In this document: positions 3,737 through 49,591 of the stretch, piece after piece | Layout: each line of letters starts with the position of its first letter | Numbering within the stretch: position 1 is the stretch's first letter | Source: a virus | Lineage: Duplodnaviria > Caudoviricetes | Virus record (IMG/VR): IMGVR_UViG_2840904412_000002 | Coordinates: 1-64,000 of that record | DNA: 64,000 nucleotides | Strand: one strand, 5' to 3' | The notes under the pieces: model-generated | Databases searched by the model: none | The model's input: only the letters and a program-made list of their open reading frames with translations | Told to the model about the DNA's origin: nothing | Position numbers and translations under genes: made by a program

Positions 3737-3769
3737 AAGGGTACTTTAAGTACCCTTTTTGTTATATTA
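3735..3769 (+). promoter_or_regulatory. Terminator followed by late promoter TGTTATATTA
   Basis: AAAAGGGTAC-TTTAA-GTACCCTTTTT then TGTTATATTA (3760-3769) before virion genes. Confidence 0.7.
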
Positions 3770-3806: not shown

Positions 3807-4445
3807 ATGGCTAAAAAGAATGTAAATGAGCTACTTAAACAAGAAACTGTAGAAGTAGCAAATAAATATTTACAAGTAGTAACACATAGAGATGGTTACA
3901 CACGTACACATGAAGGAAAATACTCATACAAAGTAGTAGATAAGTCTGGAGAATTATTTATTTTTCCAGTTCAAACAGATGGTTATGGTAAACTACAAGT
4001 GATGGTAGAATCACCAATTGCTTACACAGACGGTAATAACATCCACTTTGTAGTGAACACATTGACAGACCCCTACACACAAGCATTTATTCGTACCGAA
4101 GAGATTAGTGGCTTAAATAAAGGTAAACAACTTATTCAAGCATTTTTAGCTTTTATTGAGGACCGTTTCCGCTTTGGTATTTATAATATCTTTGTTGTGG
4201 ATAAAGAAGATGCTAAAGTATTAGCCGATGTTGCGGACACAGATGCAGACGAGGTGGAAGAAGTTAAAGGTCGTGCTTTTGAAGATGTAATCACTAATTA
4301 TCCAACAGGTAATGCTCGTGAGGACGTACGTCACGCAGACCAAAGCGATGGTATGGGAGATACTTCAGAACCCTCAGCACCTAAAAGTCCTACTGAGGTA
4401 CAAGTAGAACCTGGTGAAACTTCAGCAGACATTTCAGTAGAATAG
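3807..4445 (+). CDS. Putative virion structural protein
   Basis: Late promoter, strong RBS, acidic/Pro C-terminus (PKSPTEVQVEPGETSADIS). Confidence 0.6.
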   Translation: MAKKNVNELLKQETVEVANKYLQVVTHRDGYTRTHEGKYSYKVVDKSGELFIFPVQTDGYGKLQVMVESPIAYTDGNNIHFVVNTLTDPYTQAFIRTEEISGLNKGKQLIQAFLAFIEDRFRFGIYNIFVVDKEDAKVLADVADTDADEVEEVKGRAFEDVITNYPTGNAREDVRHADQSDGMGDTSEPSAPKSPTEVQVEPGETSADISVE

Positions 4446-4456
4446 GAGAGTAAGTA

Positions 4457-4672
4457 ATGGCTAAAACATTAAAAGTTTACAAAAAAGATAATGGTGAGGT
4501 AGTAGGACAAAAAGAAGTAACTGAAGGTACTACTACAGTCACAATTACAGGTCTTGAGGAAGGTACTACGTATGAGGAAGGAACTTTCCAAGTAGCTTTC
4601 TCTAATGAGTCTGGAGAGTCTCAAAAAGTAGATGTTCCAGAATTTACTACAACCAACTCAGACACTATATAA
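4457..4672 (+). CDS. Small FN3/Ig-like tail-associated protein
   Basis: VTITGLEEGTTY...ESQKVDVPEFTT FN3-like signature. Confidence 0.7.
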   Translation: MAKTLKVYKKDNGEVVGQKEVTEGTTTVTITGLEEGTTYEEGTFQVAFSNESGESQKVDVPEFTTTNSDTI

Positions 4673-16497: not shown

Positions 16498-18387
16498 ATG
16501 AAATTTAAAAAATTACAAAAATCACCAGAAGAACTAATTATAAATTCTAAAGCTGTGACAGGCTCAACATTAGTATATGGGGATAAGATTTACTATAAAT
16601 CAAAGAAAGACAAAGTAGATGTACTAGCACCCTTAGATATGTTTTATGATATAAAATATGTGCTTAATAATACTACTGCATCTATTATTTTATTTAGAGC
16701 TTTATGTGGACACCCTAAATTAACAAAATTTAAAGGAGACTACAAAGAAGTATTATATAAAATTAATGAAGAAAAAGTAAAATTCAATAACTTAGATTAT
16801 GAGTACTTTTACAATGACCAAGTAAAACTTGATTCACAAGAAGAACAAGAAAAACTAACCAACTTTCTTTCACTTCCTTTAAATGAGAAAATCCAGTACA
16901 AATCAGTAAGACGCAGAGAGCACGTACGAGACTCACATAGCTATCAAAATATGTATTCTTATCCTTGGGTTGTTAATAGGTACTCTACTGAAGAGAAAGC
17001 TAAACTCAAAGAACTATATACTAGTGTAGGGTCTACTCTATCTGATATTGTATTTGATAATTTATATTCTAATGGTAAAGGTCATATGTATGATAAAGAT
17101 AATATGACATTATTAAAGTTAATAGGAATGTTTGAACCTCAATCATACAATGGTAATAGTTATTATGTTAAAGTAAAATATTTTAGAGACTTAGAAGATA
17201 TTCTGCCAGAAACTAAAATTAAAGAATCACACCTAAATACTAAGACTGGAGACTTATATATTAAAGTAGATGGTGCTTACTCATACAGCTTCTCTATGAA
17301 CATATATAAAGAAGAGTATACCAAGGAATACTATAAACAAGGCTTAACTTTTAAAACATTAGTAGAGGCAATAAAGATACACTATATTAAATATAGTTCT
17401 ATGACAAACAATGTATTATCACAACTTAACAATGACATAGTAAAAAGCGTTTTAGTATTAGATAGAATTATTAATTCTCCTTATACTGAGCTATTTGACA
17501 ATGTGTCTAACTATATAACTATACCTAAAACAAAAAAGTGGAAACTACAAGATTTATTAGGTATTTCTAAACAACAGCTAGAAAAATTAAATGAGTACAA
17601 TAAGCATGAACAACGCAATTATATTATGATGGTAGATATATTAAAAACATATTATAAAGCACTTTACACAGAAGAAAACTTAAATAAGTTAAATGATACC
17701 ACATTTTTAATGTTAAACCATAATCACTCTATCGTATATGTACTTAGAGAATTGAGCAAATACTATAGTATTAGTTTCTCACAATTAAAAAAGATAGTAG
17801 AATACGTGGATGTAGATGCTCATGAAAGACAATGTATTGGGAATGTTAAATATACTTATATTGATTATATAAGAATCTATCAAAGGCTAGTTAGTGCGGG
17901 ATACAGAACTTTAGACAGTATTAATTTCACACCATTTTCTTTAAAGTTAGAACATGATATTATATCTCATGAATATGTAATGTTGAAAGACGATGTTGAT
18001 GACTCGATATTAGAAAGTAAATATGACTCAACTTATGATGTCATCACAAAGAAAAAATATAAGTACAATGGTGAGAATATTGTATTCCTTCCTGCAGACT
18101 CTAAAGATAAACTAAAGGATGAGGGTAAGAGTTTATCTCATTGCGTTGGTGGATATACATCTAGAATTATAGAAGGTAAATGCGTAATATTCCTTGCTCG
18201 TAAAGAAAAAAATATTGATGAGTCATGGTTTACAGTTGAAATTAGAAAGACTGTTAATGGTTTAGTCTTAGGGCAACAACAGTCTATTAATAAATATAAG
18301 TTGCCACCTGAATTAAAAGAACAACTAGAAAAAGATATTAGAAAGATTAATGCAAAGCATCAAGATGAATTACAGAAAGCCTCTTGA
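16498..18387 (+). CDS. PcfJ-domain protein
   Basis: C-terminal LKDEGKSLSHCVGGY..IFLAR...FTVEI signature. Confidence 0.75.
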   Translation: MKFKKLQKSPEELIINSKAVTGSTLVYGDKIYYKSKKDKVDVLAPLDMFYDIKYVLNNTTASIILFRALCGHPKLTKFKGDYKEVLYKINEEKVKFNNLDYEYFYNDQVKLDSQEEQEKLTNFLSLPLNEKIQYKSVRRREHVRDSHSYQNMYSYPWVVNRYSTEEKAKLKELYTSVGSTLSDIVFDNLYSNGKGHMYDKDNMTLLKLIGMFEPQSYNGNSYYVKVKYFRDLEDILPETKIKESHLNTKTGDLYIKVDGAYSYSFSMNIYKEEYTKEYYKQGLTFKTLVEAIKIHYIKYSSMTNNVLSQLNNDIVKSVLVLDRIINSPYTELFDNVSNYITIPKTKKWKLQDLLGISKQQLEKLNEYNKHEQRNYIMMVDILKTYYKALYTEENLNKLNDTTFLMLNHNHSIVYVLRELSKYYSISFSQLKKIVEYVDVDAHERQCIGNVKYTYIDYIRIYQRLVSAGYRTLDSINFTPFSLKLEHDIISHEYVMLKDDVDDSILESKYDSTYDVITKKKYKYNGENIVFLPADSKDKLKDEGKSLSHCVGGYTSRIIEGKCVIFLARKEKNIDESWFTVEIRKTVNGLVLGQQQSINKYKLPPELKEQLEKDIRKINAKHQDELQKAS

Positions 18388-33933: not shown

Positions 33934-34284
33934 ATGAACAACACATTAAACACTATCGAAATGAACGTCGAATACTTAGGCACTAAGTGGGTAAATGGTT
34001 GGGAACACAACGCCTATAATGTAGCACTAACACATAATGGTGTTACAGAGGAGTTTATCTGGAAGCAAGGACTAGGGATTCATAAGGAACCCTCTCTTGA
34101 AAGGGTTTTAGAACACCTTATTAAAGAGTCATATTATTATGAAGAGGACATTTACGATATGTATGATGACCCTGAAATAGCAGAAAAAGTTATAGAGCAA
34201 TTAAAAGAAGAAGAGGAAAAGTTAAATAATTTATTTTCTGAATATGAATTAGAAGAGTTCTACTCCTTTTACTTTGAAGATTAG
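33934..34284 (+). CDS. Acidic early protein
   Basis: E-rich C-terminus; own promoter. Confidence 0.7.
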   Translation: MNNTLNTIEMNVEYLGTKWVNGWEHNAYNVALTHNGVTEEFIWKQGLGIHKEPSLERVLEHLIKESYYYEEDIYDMYDDPEIAEKVIEQLKEEEEKLNNLFSEYELEEFYSFYFED

Positions 34285-34364
34285 AATTCATAGAAGCGGT
34301 TGACAAACTAACCGCTTCATGTTATTATAAAGGTAACAAAAAAACAAAATAGGAGTTGTTTATT

Positions 34365-34967
34365 ATGAAAAAAACACTAGAAAAAGCAATCGATGCCTTA
34401 ATAGGCGCATCAGCAGATACAATTGAAAAGGACGTCTTATACTGGTTAACTGGTGAGGACGTTGATACGCTAGATGAGGCTATTAACCTCCTTGAGAATG
34501 TCTCATGTGAAGCGGGAGACGTAAACCACCTTGTATACACATCTGATTGTATTAATTGGGTGTTAGAACACGAGGAGGCTATTATAGACTTTCTCAATGC
34601 TAATATTGATGACGAGGTAGACTCGTTAGACGATATTTCTTGGGAGCAACACAACCAAATAAATTCTATTATTACTGGTTGGGAGTCTGGGGACGATAGA
34701 GTAAGTCGTTTCAATAGTGATAATTGGGACGAGGCAGAAGATTCCGCTATTGAGAGTATCGGTCAGGAGGAATGGAATTCTCTTGACGAAATGGAAAGAG
34801 ACGATGTGATTCAGGGGCAGTTGAACTTCATGCTCTATACGGAAGCACCGCTAGACATAGACAAACACGACTATGTAGAGTTAGCACACAGTACATTCGA
34901 GTATTATGCTCATGTACTGTTAGCCGGTCAGTTAGAGGGCATTAAAGAAGTGATTGAGGAGGAGTGA
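34365..34967 (+). CDS. Highly acidic early protein
   Basis: D/E-rich, GC higher than flanks. Confidence 0.75.
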   Translation: MKKTLEKAIDALIGASADTIEKDVLYWLTGEDVDTLDEAINLLENVSCEAGDVNHLVYTSDCINWVLEHEEAIIDFLNANIDDEVDSLDDISWEQHNQINSIITGWESGDDRVSRFNSDNWDEAEDSAIESIGQEEWNSLDEMERDDVIQGQLNFMLYTEAPLDIDKHDYVELAHSTFEYYAHVLLAGQLEGIKEVIEEE

Positions 34968-34988
34968 ACCTCCTCTTTTTTTACAGGG

Positions 34989-35012
34989 AATTGTCTAAAT
35001 ATTCTGAAAACT
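34989..35012. promoter_or_regulatory. Two CodY-like boxes overlapping by 6 bp
   Basis: AATTGTCTAAATATT + AATATTCTGAAAACT upstream of TTGCAA promoter at 35051. Confidence 0.5.
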
Positions 35013-35131
35013 TAAACTTTTAAAGAATGTGGATTTTTTGTAAAAAACTATTGCAATTCTAAACGTAATATAGTAATATAATAGATGTAGAGGAGATACC
35101 TCACAAAATAAAATTTTAGGAGTTGGTAATT

Positions 35132-35431
35132 ATGAAACAATTTATAATGGCGGTTGAATATGAAGACGGACGTTTAGGTTACGTCCGCATGTACTTCGAG
35201 GGCTACGAGCTCTTAGAGGTGCAGGAGGTTGTTTTAGGTCACGAGGACATGCCTCCACGCTTTGAGGTTGAGGTGGACGAGATAGCGGACTATCTCGGAT
35301 TTGCCTACCTCGAGGAAGAAGACCAATTTGGGCGCTTCTTCGGTGAGTGGTTGGCTCTTGGTGAATCTTGTGACGTGCCTAGTGATTTCCTCGAGGACGA
35401 GGACGGATATTTAGTAGAGGAGGTGGAGTAA
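35132..35431 (+). CDS. Highly acidic early protein
   Basis: E/D-rich, GC-rich codons. Confidence 0.7.
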   Translation: MKQFIMAVEYEDGRLGYVRMYFEGYELLEVQEVVLGHEDMPPRFEVEVDEIADYLGFAYLEEEDQFGRFFGEWLALGESCDVPSDFLEDEDGYLVEEVE

Positions 35432-35635
35432 ATGACAGAGGGCAAAGCAAGAGAATACGCTGAACGTCTTATAAACGCTAGTTATTATCTGTGCCCTCAC
35501 GACCTAGTTGGAATGGCTAGTAAGTGGGACGGCATAGCAGACGACATTAGAATAATCGGCGTTGAGTGTTTCAAAAAAGAGTACTTAAAGGGTCTAGAGG
35601 TTGAAACCTTAGAGGTACTCAACAGATACGAGTAA
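35432..35635 (+). CDS. Early hypothetical protein
   Basis: Coupled ORF then terminator AGGCGGTC-AATA-GACCGTCTTTTTT. Confidence 0.65.
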   Translation: MTEGKAREYAERLINASYYLCPHDLVGMASKWDGIADDIRIIGVECFKKEYLKGLEVETLEVLNRYE

Positions 35636-36176
35636 GGCGGTCAATAGACCGTCTTTTTTATTTGCCTTTATATAGCTTGTATTTAGCCCATATAAGCACG
35701 CTAACCGCTTCTGTATGCTCGGTAATGTTATTGTACCTAGATAGATAAACGTTTGTTAGAGCGTCTATATGAGCTGTATATGACATGTAGAATAGTTTGG
35801 TTCGTTGATTGATACAGTAAAGATTGAATGAATCAATAATATAAATTGAAAGAGGTTAATTAATATATAGTTTTTATTTAGATAAAGGTAGATTATATAA
35901 AAAATATAATTAATAAAATACGGGGGTCGGTAGGAAGCAACATAATCCGTGGCACATTCACCTAGATACACCCCCCACTTAGGGTACTATAGATTTGGCA
36001 TATTTATAACATTTTAATTACAGAAGTCAACATACACTATTTAGGTAGTTACCTCTATAAAGTCAACATTACAAATCTACCCTGTGGGTTAGAAATGTAT
36101 AGTATAAATAGATAGTCCTTAAATATAAAGTCAACATACCTAAAATAAAAAAGAGGTAAATTAAATCCCTCTTCTC

Positions 36177-36410
36177 TTAGGTATTATTAACAACCTCTAA
36201 TTCATGTATAGTAATCATATCCATCCTATAGAAATCTCTTAGGTCTCCTTTAATAAACTTTTGCCCCTTATGGTTTGTTTCCTCTTTATAACCTTCTTCT
36301 TTAATACGTTTAATTAAGTTCTCCTTATCTGTGTATATCTTATCTTCTCTAAAATGAAAGTTATCTTCATAAGGTTCACAATTATCATGTTCTACTTGGT
36401 ATAGTTTCAC
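36177..36410 (-). CDS. Hypothetical protein
   Basis: ORF with RBS GAGGAG. Confidence 0.7.
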   Translation of the reverse strand: MKLYQVEHDNCEPYEDNFHFREDKIYTDKENLIKRIKEEGYKEETNHKGQKFIKGDLRDFYRMDMITIHELEVVNNT

Positions 36411-36489
36411 TAGTCATTTTACTCCTCTTCATAAGACCATTCACCATATTCTACATTATAGTGTGATATATCTACTAATTTTCTATTTA

Positions 36490-37650
36490 TTATTCTATTT
36501 TTGATACATTTAAATAAGTTTCAATTAGAGGTAAGACTTGTGATAGGTATTGCTCTTCAGTTAAATCTAAACTATTTTCAGACCAAATAACAAAAGAAGT
36601 ACCCCTAACTGCTAAAGGACTATCTACATCAACAAATTCACTACCTTCTACATCGTCCTCTAATTCACAGAAAGTATCAGTATTAAACTGACGTTTTATA
36701 TAATCTTGTTGCCATTCTATATCTTCTTGACTAAATTTAGATTCAGGTAAGAAAGTCGTTGAATAGAAATTACAATTTGTTAAGTCTCTATTATCATTAG
36801 CAAAATCTTTAGCTGATAAACCACCTTCAGATTTTTTCCAGTAATAAACTTCAATACCTCTATCTAATCGTTTTAATCCATTAGTATATATACTATCGTT
36901 CCATACAATAGGAGTAACGTTTTTATCAAATAAGTGTTCAGCTATTGTATTAATAAAGTCTATATAAGCAGGTTGATTATTACTTGCACCTGCTGACTCA
37001 TCAGCACCAATATTAAATCTCATTTTATCTTGTTTAAATAGTGAGATAATTTCACTAACTAAGGTCTTAACAGCAGTATAAGTATCATCATTATACCAAT
37101 AATCAGCTAAAGTATCATCAAAGTCTGATTGAATGTTTTTATCAGGATACAGCTCTTTTACAATACTTAACCATTTACCTGAATGACCTGGGACGGAGAA
37201 ACATGGTGTGATTTGTACATCTTTATCTTTTGCATAATTAACAATATCTTCAATTTCATCTTTAGTTAAGTAATCTTTATTCTGAGTGGTTTGGGTTTGA
37301 TTTAGATATTCAGAGTAAATACCATATCTATTGTTATCTGAAATATAGAGTTGTAAGTGTTTTCCATCATTATCATGAATAGTATCAATAACTTTTTTAA
37401 TACTATCTTTAGATAGGTATCTTCTAGCAATATCTAATAGAACCTCACGTCTATGCTTAGTCTTAAAGCTAGGTACAGGCGTTTTACTCGAATCTTTTGT
37501 GTAAGATAGGGTGTAATTATCATACCATACATTAGGTTGTAGGTTTCTAAGTTTGATACTAATATTACTAGTACCTTGTTTAAGCTCGTACTCAGACCCT
37601 TGTACAAGTTTATCATTTAAAAATAAATATAAGGTCTTATTTTGGTTCAT
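36490..37650 (-). CDS. GH20 beta-N-acetylglucosaminidase (dispersin B-like) with N-terminal FN3-like domain
   Basis: LLDIARRY, LQLYISDN, VPGHS, FNIGADE (catalytic DE), IVWND, VYYW, IWSE; N-terminal LRNLQPNVWY..KTPVPSFKT. Confidence 0.85.
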   Translation of the reverse strand: MNQNKTLYLFLNDKLVQGSEYELKQGTSNISIKLRNLQPNVWYDNYTLSYTKDSSKTPVPSFKTKHRREVLLDIARRYLSKDSIKKVIDTIHDNDGKHLQLYISDNNRYGIYSEYLNQTQTTQNKDYLTKDEIEDIVNYAKDKDVQITPCFSVPGHSGKWLSIVKELYPDKNIQSDFDDTLADYWYNDDTYTAVKTLVSEIISLFKQDKMRFNIGADESAGASNNQPAYIDFINTIAEHLFDKNVTPIVWNDSIYTNGLKRLDRGIEVYYWKKSEGGLSAKDFANDNRDLTNCNFYSTTFLPESKFSQEDIEWQQDYIKRQFNTDTFCELEDDVEGSEFVDVDSPLAVRGTSFVIWSENSLDLTEEQYLSQVLPLIETYLNVSKIE

Positions 37651-37684
37651 ATTAACATCTAGCTCCTTTAGTATTTAGTAATTT

Positions 37685-37694
37685 TAATATAACA
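37685..37694 (-). promoter_or_regulatory. Late promoter TGTTATATTA
   Basis: Identical to motif upstream of virion and holin genes. Confidence 0.7.
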
Positions 37695-37987
37695 ACATTA
37701 GTATTACTTAATGTGAAATGTAGATTTTAATAGTATCTAACCTAGTCTAGTTTATCCTCAGATAATAATTTCACCATTTTGGTTATTATGCTTTACAAAA
37801 ATAAGACTCATGGTGTTAAAGTCTTACAAGGGTTCACTTTTACAATGGCTAAATCGGTCAAAGGTTTGTAAATCTTCTGTGTCTACAACAAACTGATTTC
37901 CTTTCTTATAGATGCTAACCTTTTCTCGTATTTGTCCATGAGTACTTGTAATTTGTAACCTTTTTTCAATCACATAGATAGTTTTCA

Positions 37988-38314
37988 TTATTTAAACTCT
38001 GTTCCAGCCTTAGCCCATTGCATAGGCGTAATGATTTCTAGCTTATACCCTTTTAAATCTTGTTCTATAATATTTAGATTTTCCCATACCTCAATCCAAT
38101 GGACTCTAGAATCATCATTATAAATATGGAAGTCTTGAGGGTTTTCTAGGTATTGTTCTAGCTCTTCATAGTATAGAACTTCAAAAGCGGTATCGTCAAT
38201 TCCCATTAATAATCTTAATCTTTCCTTATACCCTATTTTAGCATTATAATAAATATTTTCTAATTGTCTTTCTACCCTATTAAATAGTGTTTGAACACCT
38301 TGTAATTCATGCAT
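37988..38314 (-). CDS. Hypothetical protein
   Basis: Promoter and RBS. Confidence 0.7.
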   Translation of the reverse strand: MHELQGVQTLFNRVERQLENIYYNAKIGYKERLRLLMGIDDTAFEVLYYEELEQYLENPQDFHIYNDDSRVHWIEVWENLNIIEQDLKGYKLEIITPMQWAKAGTEFK

Positions 38315-38377
38315 AACACACTGCCTCCTAATTAATTATATAATTAGTATAAAGGATAATAATTAGAATGTCAATAA

Positions 38378-38980
38378 TTATTCTAAAGTTTCTTCTATGA
38401 TTTGTTTTAATGTATAGCATTCAATTTCATCTAATTCTTCAAGATACTGTAATTGATAGTAGAAGTTATCTACAATTTTATCAAAGGCTTTTGCTTTCTT
38501 TTCTTGTAAAGATAGTTGTTCTTTTGTCGTAATTTCATTATCCGCTTCATTATTAGTTTCTTCTAAGGATTCTTTGGCGTTATCTTTATTTACTGTTACT
38601 TTTAGCTTGTTATCATAGTAACTGTTCTTTTGGTTTAAGTTGTAGTTATCGTTGTAATCATTCCAATCTACATAGATACATTCATGTGTTTCATCCTCAT
38701 AGATAATATCTATAGCTGCGATGTCATGGCAACTTTCTAACCTTTCATATGCCGTAGTTTCTCCGTCTAAGCTGTCGAAAATTAAGTCTTTCGGGTTATT
38801 AATAAGAAGTGCTAAGTGGCTACAATGTTTTGTTTTATTTATGTGAAAATCTTCTTTTAAAGTGCGCTGAGAGACATAGGCTTCCGTAATTCCTCCGATA
38901 TAGAATAAGCCAATATCCTTAGGTTCTAAACGAATAACATCACAATTCTCTAATACTAAATCTACATATTTTGTATTCAT
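38378..38980 (-). CDS. Hypothetical protein
   Basis: 200-aa ORF; KAKAFD motif seen in staphylococcal siphovirus proteins. Confidence 0.7.
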   Translation of the reverse strand: MNTKYVDLVLENCDVIRLEPKDIGLFYIGGITEAYVSQRTLKEDFHINKTKHCSHLALLINNPKDLIFDSLDGETTAYERLESCHDIAAIDIIYEDETHECIYVDWNDYNDNYNLNQKNSYYDNKLKVTVNKDNAKESLEETNNEADNEITTKEQLSLQEKKAKAFDKIVDNFYYQLQYLEELDEIECYTLKQIIEETLE

Positions 38981-49005: not shown

Positions 49006-49591
49006 TACTACGACTCCTTTTTTCGTAAAAGTCGGCTTGGAAGTAACAAATTAGTATTAATAACATATTAACCAGTTCAGTAATAACAATATGTGGTGTC
49101 GTATTAGTTAATACCATACTAACCGATAGTAAACCAATGGCAAACCCTATAATAAGATATAACCATTTGTTAGTTCCATCAGACTGTTTAGTTTTATAGA
49201 ACTGTATAATCTGGCTTATGTAAGCTAGTATAATAGATAGTGTTGCTACTGTTTGTGTTAATTCTACATAGGTACCAAAAATATATAGAAATAAAGAAAA
49301 GATAATTAAAAATAAAAATATAAACCAATCTTTCTTTCTATACACTACTACAAGTAAACAAACAAGTCCTAAAAATAAGTTAACACCTACAGAAATAATT
49401 TGGAATAATGTTGATTCTGTATGTAGTAAGTTATAAAAACTAATACCTACGGTGGTTATAATAAGGTACCAAAACCACCTAGATACACCATTAATATTAC
49501 CATCTTTTACTAGAGACTTTAAGCCAGGAATATACCCAATCGTAATTAATATAGCATACATGGAACTTAAAATTAAAGGTAAATTACTCAT
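48974..49591 (-). CDS. PQ-loop/SemiSWEET-like multi-pass membrane protein
   Basis: Two 3-TM repeats (YIPGL..; YISQI..KTKQSDG). Confidence 0.6.
   Translation of the reverse strand: MSNLPLILSSMYAILITIGYIPGLKSLVKDGNINGVSRWFWYLIITTVGISFYNLLHTESTLFQIISVGVNLFLGLVCLLVVVYRKKDWFIFLFLIIFSLFLYIFGTYVELTQTVATLSIILAYISQIIQFYKTKQSDGTNKWLYLIIGFAIGLLSVSMVLTNTTPHIVITELVNMLLILICYFQADFYEKRSRSNGFNKGFKKS

Follow-up and report, generated by a model that had tools for sequence, protein, structure and literature searches.

Dispersins are the reference enzymes for the removal of poly-N-acetylglucosamine (PNAG, also called polysaccharide intercellular adhesin, PIA), which is the chief polysaccharide in the biofilm and slime of staphylococci, and phages have already been engineered to carry one of them, DspB. 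The subject of this study is a gene for a 386-aa protein, located at 36490..37650 on the minus strand (open reading frame (ORF) list, ATG start, stop codon included) of a 64,000-nucleotide stretch of viral DNA, hereafter the window, that makes up positions 1 to 64,000 of the 73,070-base IMG/VR record IMGVR_UViG_2840904412_000002. The window DNA is a portion of a Twort-like staphylococcal myophage. An original prediction, made from the sequence alone, had described the gene product as a late-expressed, dispersin-B-like glycoside hydrolase of family 20 (GH20) fused to a virion-type FN3 domain. I find that the protein consists of an FN3/Ig-like module followed by a GH20 domain of the dispersin clade, and that it is best read overall, with a confidence somewhat above even, as a late-made, two-domain phage PNAG depolymerase.

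The described enzymes that are closest in working are the Gram-positive dispersins DispTs2 and DispTs3 of Terribacillus saccharophilus, for which PNAG hydrolysis is reported in PMC11883664. They share with the window protein a single-domain GH20 barrel, the D-E pair, and the WND, NxNxY and W...E motifs, and they gave its best sequence match (residues 68-382) and its best fold match (TM-score by target, TMt, 0.91-0.93). They differ in being bacterial, in having signal peptides and no FN3 module, and in that Y102, S152 and S357 of the window protein are H, D and G in them; identity in the structural alignment is 34-35%. DspB of Aggregatibacter actinomycetemcomitans is likewise a GH20 PNAG hydrolase, and its R27, D183, E184, W216, W237, W330 and E332 are all matched in the window protein, but it is only 23% identical in the fold alignment, is secreted by a Gram-negative bacterium, and has an alpha6 extension with D245/E248 that the window protein lacks. 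DispCo of Curtobacterium oceanosedimentum combines a dispersin-type GH20 with an N-terminal FN3-like domain in the same domain order as the window protein; it differs in being bacterial and secreted, its FN3 domain is known from its authors' AlphaFold model, and the likeness drawn here is to its published description (PMC11883664).

Among phages, Dpo7 of siphovirus vB_SepiS-phiIPLA7 is also a staphylococcal phage exopolysaccharide depolymerase that removes biofilm polysaccharide, but it is a pre-neck appendage protein and not a GH20, and it has been called 'non-dispersin B-like', with a molecular target not known (PMC6116285). The mechanism proposed here for the window protein is that of engineered T7-DspB, in which dispersin is made in the cell without export and clears biofilm upon release by lysis (Lu and Collins 2007, as related in PMC11357414). 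That phage is man-made, infects E. coli and carries the bacterial enzyme unchanged, whereas the window protein would be a natural counterpart with its own adaptor domain. The DspB review cites engineered T7 as the sole phage case (PMC11357414), and full-text literature searches found no paper describing a natural phage-encoded dispersin. Closest in kinship are the uncharacterised 'tail fiber' GH20 proteins of the MCE-2014 type, namely the 697-aa 'tail fiber protein' of MCE-2014 (= DRA88) and its homologues in PSU4, PSU5 and Alsa_2, which share the family of the FN3-like first domain and the GH20 clade (38-39% identity over residues 62-383). Their long form differs by having collagen repeats and a middle part of ~140 aa between FN3 and GH20, as read in MCE-2014 and PSU5, and is already labelled in databases as a beta-N-acetylhexosaminidase (UniProt, automatic) or as a 'tail fiber protein'.

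A GH20 domain of the dispersin clade

The GH20 (beta/alpha)8 catalytic domain spans residues 66-386 (36490..37455, minus strand), as delimited by PDB sequence matches, an AlphaFold2 (AF2) model, Foldseek and conserved sites, and its residues 68-363 matched Pfam PF00728 (GH20) with an E-value of 1.9e-24 (87.1 bits against a cut-off of 22.3). The GH20 motifs named in the original prediction were all found: LLDIARRY at 71-78, LQLYISD at 99-105, IGADE at 214-218, WND at 250-252, YYW at 269-271 and IWSE at 355-358. A sequence search of the entire PDB returned the four solved dispersins as its top four entries, namely DispTs3 (8QAK, 3e-56), DispTs2 (8QB6/9HTA, 1.5e-54), DispLp (8QCE, 4.2e-25) and DspB (1YHT, 1.7e-23), all of which hydrolyse PNAG (PMC11883664), while the first non-dispersin, pneumococcal StrH, followed at 8e-11. 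The AF2 model of the whole protein, built on an 18-row alignment, reached a pLDDT of 86.4 and a pTM of 0.82, with the barrel mostly above 90. Foldseek ranked dispersins as the best six matches of this model (TMt 0.83-0.93), followed by StrH, EndoE-GH20 and lacto-N-biosidases; at least 500 PDB folds matched at E <= 0.001, and all of the top matches listed were GH20 enzymes. Comparison with DspB by hidden Markov model and by structure, which had been set as a check on the prediction, thus left the GH20 fold standing, with DspB among the top matches in both sequence and fold.

Residue conservation was read from an alignment of 77 relatives (stored matches of 280-520 aa in P0001-P0156, minus P0006 and P0008, with longer multidomain ones dropped). 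The catalytic set of R76, H156, D217-E218, W250-N-D252, W271, W356 and E358 is intact, and in DspB numbering the window protein keeps R27, H120, D183, E184, W216, N217, D218, Y236, W237, N271, N273, Y275, W330 and E332; R27, D183, E184, E332 and the three Trp are the residues named as critical in DspB (PMC11357414). The catalytic pair D217-E218 within IGADE is invariant in the 18 rows used for modelling, and its two residues are present in 75/77 and 77/77 of the wider alignment. Moreover, D179 aligned with DspB D147, the residue that recognises cationic PNAG (PMC7949127).

A 30-row tree (7 phage domains, 12 of 150 representatives and 11 genome loci) placed the 7 phage GH20 domains in one clade (SH-aLRT 89), sister (92) to three Macrococcus/UBA6286 proteins of ~320 aa, and both groups adjoin a secreted DispTs/DispSf-type clade. 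The tree came from a quick search with SH-aLRT support only, and I chose its root, two Enterococcus GH20s. It does not include P0017 (truncated), P0008 (which nearly duplicates P0004), L009, L021 and L065. The phage clade is bracketed by DspB-type (P0033, 9.5e-85 to 1yht), DispLp-type (P0028, 2e-129 to 8qce), DispTs-type (L036, 7e-166 to 8qak) and Mammaliicoccus fleurettii rows, and this bracketing by active dispersin types favours PNAG activity as the ancestral state. Sequence, fold and tree together support that the enzyme belongs to the dispersin clade of GH20.

The protein is identical to the 386-aa ORF product on record as P0001, and a search of its own genome for GH20 domains found the 36490..37650 gene as the single place. 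vB_SpsM-DH2 (Staphylococcus pseudintermedius) is the nearest deposited relative at the locus, with 98.8% DNA identity over 98% of window positions 36000-38400 and with 383/386 residues of the GH20 protein the same; this segment had partial matches in 240 phage records, and coverage of at least 80% in DH2 alone. A DNA contig of a separate study (public runs) spans the full 2.6-kb stretch and is ~97.7% alike (59 differing letters, 2 gaps).

The FN3/Ig-like module and probable late expression

Residues 1-65 (37456..37650, minus strand) probably form an FN3/Ig-like beta-sandwich module by PHROG profiles, hhalign, AF2 and BFVD, while Pfam gave no match on these residues, fn3 included. The N-terminus had been predicted to resemble the 71-aa stand-alone protein encoded at 4457..4672 (plus strand), behind an exact late box at 3760-3769 and after the sigma-factor gene; this 71-aa ORF matched Pfam fn3 at 3.8e-4, below the cut-off. 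The resemblance depended on the method: direct BLASTP between the first 70 aa and the 71-aa ORF was not significant (E=24), whereas profile comparisons bore it out. Residues 1-70 matched phrog_341 (2.4e-5) and phrog_4178 (1.2e-4), and the 71-aa ORF matched the same families at the same profile positions (8.3e-21 and 4.3e-14). Aligning seven GH20 N-termini with seven 71-aa-type proteins by hhalign yielded a probability of 96.7% and an E-value of 3.6e-10, and L37, Y43, P60, F62 and T64 are invariant across a joint 13-row alignment of the module and the 71-aa type.

The N-terminus was poorly modelled in the whole-protein AF2 run (pLDDT 54-66), and a second model of residues 1-67 built on a family alignment reached 84.6. 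The best matches of the latter in BFVD were small proteins of Twort-like phages (TM 0.68-0.74, E 1.8e-3 to 2e-2), headed by a 70-aa 'structural protein' of Remus (TM 0.74/0.72, E 1.8e-3), a 'major tail protein' of ISP and a 'tail protein' of phiIPLA-C1C; at E <= 0.001 there was no match in BFVD or PDB. Weaker BFVD matches were a 616-aa lipase/acylhydrolase of G15 (TM-score by query, TMq, 0.71, E 0.05), the MCE-2014 GH20 protein (TMq 0.65, E 0.32) and a 1268-aa beta-helix protein of SA11 (TMq 0.56, E 0.81). In the PDB, the best matches, which serve as leads only, were the Tuc2009 baseplate tripod chain 5e7t_B (E 0.37, TMq 0.66) and then ordinary FN3 domains at TM 0.3-0.5. Structural matches in the ESM Atlas were Ig-like/Big_2 domains, and searching the Atlas by features gave nothing usable for the module. 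Together, these results support that the N-terminal module is a member of a phage FN3/Ig-like family, whose members in Twort-like staphylococcal phages would be either separate late proteins or the leading domain of enzymes and fibres.

The architectures of the relatives bear on what the module may do. The short form, FN3-like plus GH20 in 374-386 aa, is found in the window, DH2, PSU6 and P0002-P0005, while the long form of 697-727 aa (FN3-like, collagen repeats, middle part, GH20) is found in MCE-2014 and PSU5; PSU4 and Alsa_2 match the GH20 part of the long form at 38-39%, the match being limited to that part. The 712-aa protein P0009 has BppU_N (8.9e-23, above cut-off), collagen, the middle part and GH20. 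BppU_N is a baseplate-anchoring domain, as its Pfam family name says and as is known from lactococcal phages. From collagen to GH20, P0009 is near-identical to the MCE-2014 protein and its N-terminal domain comes from another family, a clean anchor swap. The FN3-like module and BppU_N accordingly occupy the same position in otherwise near-identical fibres, which is the best, if indirect, argument for docking of the module onto the particle. For the stand-alone type, liquid chromatography with tandem mass spectrometry of purified fRuSau02 particles detected the 73-aa TmpH (PMC5618024), whose gene in that phage comes after those of the sigma factor and a 210-aa protein; the order in the window is alike (229 aa, 212 aa, 71 aa).

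Late expression was suggested by an exact Kayvirus late -10 box, TGTTATATTA, which a pattern search located at 37685..37694 (minus strand), 35 nt 5' of the ATG, with a ribosome-binding site AAAGGAG 12 nt 5' of the ATG (37663..37669, minus strand, read from the sequence). According to PMC7698491, TGTTATATTA is the long -10 box of late promoters without a -35 box, defined by RNA-seq in vB_SauM-515A1. The window holds six exact copies compared with 1.63 +/- 1.44 expected, a number reached in 1/100 shuffles, and all six lie in or beside gaps between listed ORFs and are oriented toward the next ORF. One of them (3760-3769) precedes the Ig-like/FN3 gene pair 3807-4672, and four others (47531, 58200, 59079 and 62174) lie in the same minus-strand arm as the GH20 gene; the predicted box exists as an exact copy, and the otherwise early-promoter region that had been assumed around it is only partly borne out. 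No sigma-70-type site overlapping the late box was found in the scan. One-mismatch boxes TGATATATTA lie 5' of the GH20 gene in PSU6 (67 nt from the start) and in MCE-2014 and PSU5 (34 nt); as one-mismatch boxes are common (35 in the window, both strands), these are supportive and not decisive. Another one-mismatch box, TGCTATATTA, occurs at 49547-49556 (minus strand) and corresponds to the variant box reported for the late tgl promoter, pL67 (PMC7698491).

Terminator-like hairpins flank the gene. A weak one with a U-run (9 bp, 2 G-C pairs; 37796..37827, minus strand, from folding) overlaps the stop of a 54-aa ORF upstream; at -8.2 kcal/mol (z -2.46, equalled by 3/200 shuffles) it is absent from the consensus scan list, and it may keep the late box apart from the early unit upstream. 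The other, also with a U-run, follows the BofL gene at 36141..36176 (minus strand; -14.6 kcal/mol, z -2.8, equalled by 3/200 shuffles). Hairpins and promoters together delineate a likely unit of late box, GH20 gene, UboA remnant, BofL and terminator, and on this layout the GH20 protein is probably made late.

The predicted lack of a signal peptide agreed with a hydrophobicity proxy: within the first 40 residues, the Kyte-Doolittle mean over 12 aa peaked at 0.51, and this peak ranged from -0.07 to 0.51 in nine phage-form sequences versus 1.94-3.60 in six bacterial relatives. Since an export signal is absent, the substrate would be reached only upon cell lysis, by an enzyme that is either free or carried by the particle. 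From its late-type promoter behind a weak hairpin, the enzyme would be made along with structural and lysis proteins. The GH20 barrel would work by substrate-assisted catalysis, with D217 orienting the substrate's acetamido group and E218 acting as acid/base, and would cut the beta-1,6-linked N-acetylglucosamine polymer (PNAG/PIA). Thinning of the PNAG layer around neighbouring cells would then let progeny phage diffuse and reach wall receptors.

Phage therapy against staphylococci relies chiefly on Kay-type myophages. If active, the enzyme would be a ready-made, phage-adapted antibiofilm enzyme, a marker for picking biofilm-active phages and a means of asking whether carrying such a gene is worth its cost in nature, all of which is of practical interest for biofilm-directed phage therapy. 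MCE-2014/DRA88, a carrier of the long form, has been used together with phage K against S. aureus biofilms.

Competing explanations

A number of findings weigh against the reading as a late-made PNAG depolymerase and are gathered here with the explanations that draw on them. Literature searches found no reports on activity, expression or virion association of the window protein or its phage homologues. Concerning timing, the TT extension reported for active late promoters in PMC7698491 is absent at the window box, and the same source describes two consensus sites and pL154 without a late step-up in expression, so that a perfect box is no guarantee of late transcription. A strong early-type promoter of the sigma-70 type (TTGACA-17-TATACT, 11/12 positions in the scan) lies at 38346..38374 (minus strand) 5' of a 108-aa ORF, 680 nt upstream and with one weak hairpin between, and would drive the 108-aa and 54-aa ORFs. 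Sigma-70-type sites overall were not enriched in the region (26 vs 25.5 expected). An oligo-dT metatranscriptome contained two short contigs on the gene, 36948-37206 and 37639-37843; the second crosses the late box and fits upstream read-through, DNA carry-over is possible, and the contigs show no transcript starts. Some early read-through into the GH20 unit is possible.

The best-surviving alternative keeps the enzyme and its substrate, yet takes the protein to be a free depolymerase released by lysis, in which the FN3/Ig-like module would either bind carbohydrate or a surface weakly, as an accessory, or act as a spacer, and so keep the enzyme near the matrix. It draws on the short form itself, which has no collagen stalk or other trimerising or oligomerising part, and on the position of the gene at the repeat border amid small accessory genes and outside the structural module; an anchor plus oligomerising stalk encoded with structural genes is found for the long sister forms and not for the short form. 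Ordinary FN3 domains, at weak scores, are the folds closest to the module in the PDB, and the mass spectrometry list that contains TmpH also includes the sigma factor and ribonucleotide reductase, which are non-structural (PMC5618024). Secreted bacterial DispCo likewise has an N-terminal FN3 (PMC11883664), meaning that FN3 need not signify virion attachment. Two findings run counter to a free enzyme: the module family sits where BppU_N sits in an otherwise near-identical fibre, and the module is best matched in structure by small phage proteins with structural or tail annotations. Given the missing stalk and the FN3-GH20 order of DispCo, attachment of the window protein to the virion through its module is put a little short of even chances on the sequence evidence, with the free state a little above; the alternative in full, including a binding or spacer role of the module, is credible but tentative. 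The 'virion-type' label of the original prediction is thus its weaker part, resting on annotation, sister-phage architecture and one mass spectrometry list, and as things stand the short form should not inherit 'tail fiber protein' as its name from GenBank/PHROG.

A more far-reaching proposal, which I consider rather unlikely, would be a plug-in system of Twort-like staphylococcal phages, in which the FN3-like adaptor docks interchangeable matrix or wall enzymes (GH20, the G15 lipase/acylhydrolase, the SA11 beta-helix protein) with the collagen stalk being optional. The window protein would be the minimal form of such a system, and the virion itself would dissolve PNAG as a natural 'enzymatic phage'. 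The three architectures in any case amount to a natural experiment in mounting enzymes on phage particles.

A second alternative, clearly less probable than the free enzyme, is that the protein is active on a substrate other than PNAG, such as beta-GlcNAc on wall teichoic acid (receptor trimming on lysed or neighbouring cells) or beta-GlcNAc glycans and oligosaccharides. Twort-like phages use teichoic acid and its GlcNAc as receptor. GH20 enzymes are exo-beta-N-acetylhexosaminidases with many substrates, and StrH and the lacto-N-biosidases came next after the dispersins in the fold search. The sister group of the phage clade also leaves room for this: the nearest cellular relatives, from Macrococcus equipercicus, M. 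lamae and UBA6286 (L011, L012 and L013), are ~320 aa long and without signal peptide, L011 lies in a plain chromosomal setting beside an ABC permease and an alpha/beta hydrolase, and the substrate of these proteins may not necessarily be extracellular PNAG. These signal-less sister proteins temper what the tree says about PNAG. Both Macrococcus species also encode a second, secreted dispersin-type copy (L014, L015).

The residues specific to dispersins were mixed in this respect. Six are given as dispersin-only in PMC11883664 (DspB H53, D116, W216, D218, W330 and G331), a signature that was derived from a handful of enzymes; three of them are kept in the window protein (W250, D252 and W356) and three are changed, namely H53Y (Y102), D116S (S152) and G331S (S357), so that the strict published signature is incomplete. 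Tyr at the H53 position is found in 6/77 relatives, with the four closest phage-type forms all reading LQLY, and Ser at the G331 position in 18/77. The D116 position holds Asp in 63/77 relatives and another residue in 14/77, Ser being confined to the window protein (1/77), although the DH2 protein carries it as well; the residue at this position hydrogen-bonds the catalytic pair, so D116S could lower activity. The G20 position holds Glu in the window protein, as in 6/77 relatives. Because of the incomplete signature, the protein is called dispersin-like and not a proven dispersin. A substrate other than PNAG is nevertheless disfavoured by the wide margin with which the closest characterised relatives are PNAG-active (3e-56 vs 8e-11 for the first non-dispersin), by the Asp kept at the position of DspB D147, and by the retention of the dispersin-only regions W216-D218 and N271-Y275 plus E332 (WND at 250-252, NCNFY at 292-296 and E358), along with W330. 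Judged on the sequence, PNAG is the probable substrate.

Finally, a catalytic domain crippled by D116S and H53Y, turned into a PNAG/GlcNAc-binding adhesin or left as a decaying passenger gene without role, is very improbable, for although S152 replaces the Asp of 63/77 relatives with a Ser seen in no other aligned sequence and the three-piece Alsa_2 homologue under two annotated genes suggests that decay occurs, the reading frame is intact and 99% the same in two phages, the independent contig carries the full stretch, the acid/base pair and all pocket Trp are intact, and Asp is also missing at the D116 position in 14/77 relatives.

The repeat border and the origin of the gene

The GH20 gene lies next to BofL (border ORF L), a 77-aa protein encoded at 36177..36410 (minus strand; phrog_2884 at 2.1e-43; bofL in A3R) by the last gene before the long terminal repeat, which is ~92% identical in DNA to its phage K counterpart. 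The 21 codons that separate the GH20 stop from BofL (36419..36481, minus strand) have no start codon, end in ...KLVDISHYNVEYGEWSYEEE*, and align to the C-terminal ends of gp023 from phage K and UboA from A3R (...HYNAEYGTWSYEEE...), as established by translations, DNA alignment and blastn. The orphan C-terminal fragment that had been noted here, at 36481..36419 including the stop, is therefore the 3' remnant of a UboA/gp023-type gene. Blastn homology to phage K and A3R runs from the repeat border to window position 36473 and resumes at 38389; the gap corresponds to 1.9 kb here in place of about 130 nt in phage K and A3R, and the GH20 gene is part of a block that was inserted over, or took the place of, a resident gene. 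The rest of the block holds two small ORFs of 108 aa (phrog_8073) and 54 aa (no family) at 37824..38314 (minus strand; ORF list, PHROG, blastn), and a homologue of the 108-aa ORF is found on the opposite side of BofL in V1SA12, MCE-2014 and PSU6. Beyond it, the 200-aa ORF 38378-38980 (minus strand) has a phrog_2349 body and a C-terminal part like the N-terminal (DUF1024-like) half of UboA; with the 3' remnant on the other side, the UboA-type gene appears split around the inserted block. The gene would have entered the variable terminal-repeat border by replacing most of this UboA-type gene.

The placement of the GH20 gene varies between phages. It is 5' (upstream) of BofL in the window, directly 3' (downstream) of BofL in MCE-2014 and PSU5, and ~2.6 kb upstream beside a phosphatase gene in PSU6, and its behaviour in these comparisons is that of a mobile accessory cassette in the repeat-border region. 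Immediately 5' of the GH20 gene, PSU6 has a fragment of 96 aa annotated 'lipase acylhydrolase domain' (L001 3394-3684). The 629-aa ORF of the window (16498..18387, plus strand) was considered as a possible G15-type FN3-lipase and rejected, as it has a PcfJ-like domain (1.4e-19).

The presence of the gene in sister phages, which had also been set as a check, was rare. A tblastn search of 50,697 phage records found it in 9, of which seven are staphylococcal and represent only six phages (MCE-2014 twice) and two are faecal contigs at 23% identity; identities were 99% for DH2, 61% for PSU6 and 38-39% for PSU5, Alsa_2, MCE-2014 and PSU4. The Alsa_2 homologue (OR354821.1) was matched in three pieces under two annotated hypothetical proteins, and the gene is probably interrupted or frameshifted there. 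Among proteins, an exhaustive HMMER search over 1.84 billion representatives returned 1481 matches at E <= 0.001 and 13 at <= 1e-30. A word-index search of 5.8 billion proteins gave five relatives besides the protein itself and no longer homologues, a blank that reflects the limit of the method, since forms of ~700 aa exist. A scan of one genome per prokaryotic species found 121 relatives, and among the best 80 of 121 the nearest were from Macrococcus lamae and M. equipercicus (39-40%), the metagenome-assembled genome UBA6286, Staphylococcus pasteuri, Mammaliicoccus fleurettii and Terribacillus saccharophilus.

The composition of the gene is that of the phage, with a G+C content of 0.295 compared with 0.299 for the window, and a third-position G+C content of 0.168 compared with 0.217 +/- 0.047 in 35 long ORFs, within ~1 standard deviation. 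A recent transfer from a cell was rejected for want of any compositional sign of one, and the gene instead appears to be an old resident of the phage gene pool. The predicted acquisition thus holds for this locus but not as a recent import from a cell, given that all phage copies also form one clade.

A profile search of IMG/VR found two loci only (L009 and L010, on contigs of 128,864 and 98,570 bases), both of the P0005 type, which is 38-40% identical to the window protein and encoded between an exonuclease gene and terminase/portal genes. These contigs come from another large phage, whose own genes for a sigma factor, an exonuclease, terminase and portal lie near the 382-aa FN3-like plus GH20 gene. 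Unlike the window protein, P0005 has His at the H53 position and Asp at the D116 position.

On the repeat side of BofL, window positions 34001-36000 form a block of 38% G+C in a genome of 29-30%. Its ORFs at 34356..34967, 35123..35431 and 35432..35635 (plus strand) had no or weak PHROG matches, and at the DNA level the block is shared with DH2 only, whose version is broken up by additional sequence (4.1 kb vs 2.3 kb).

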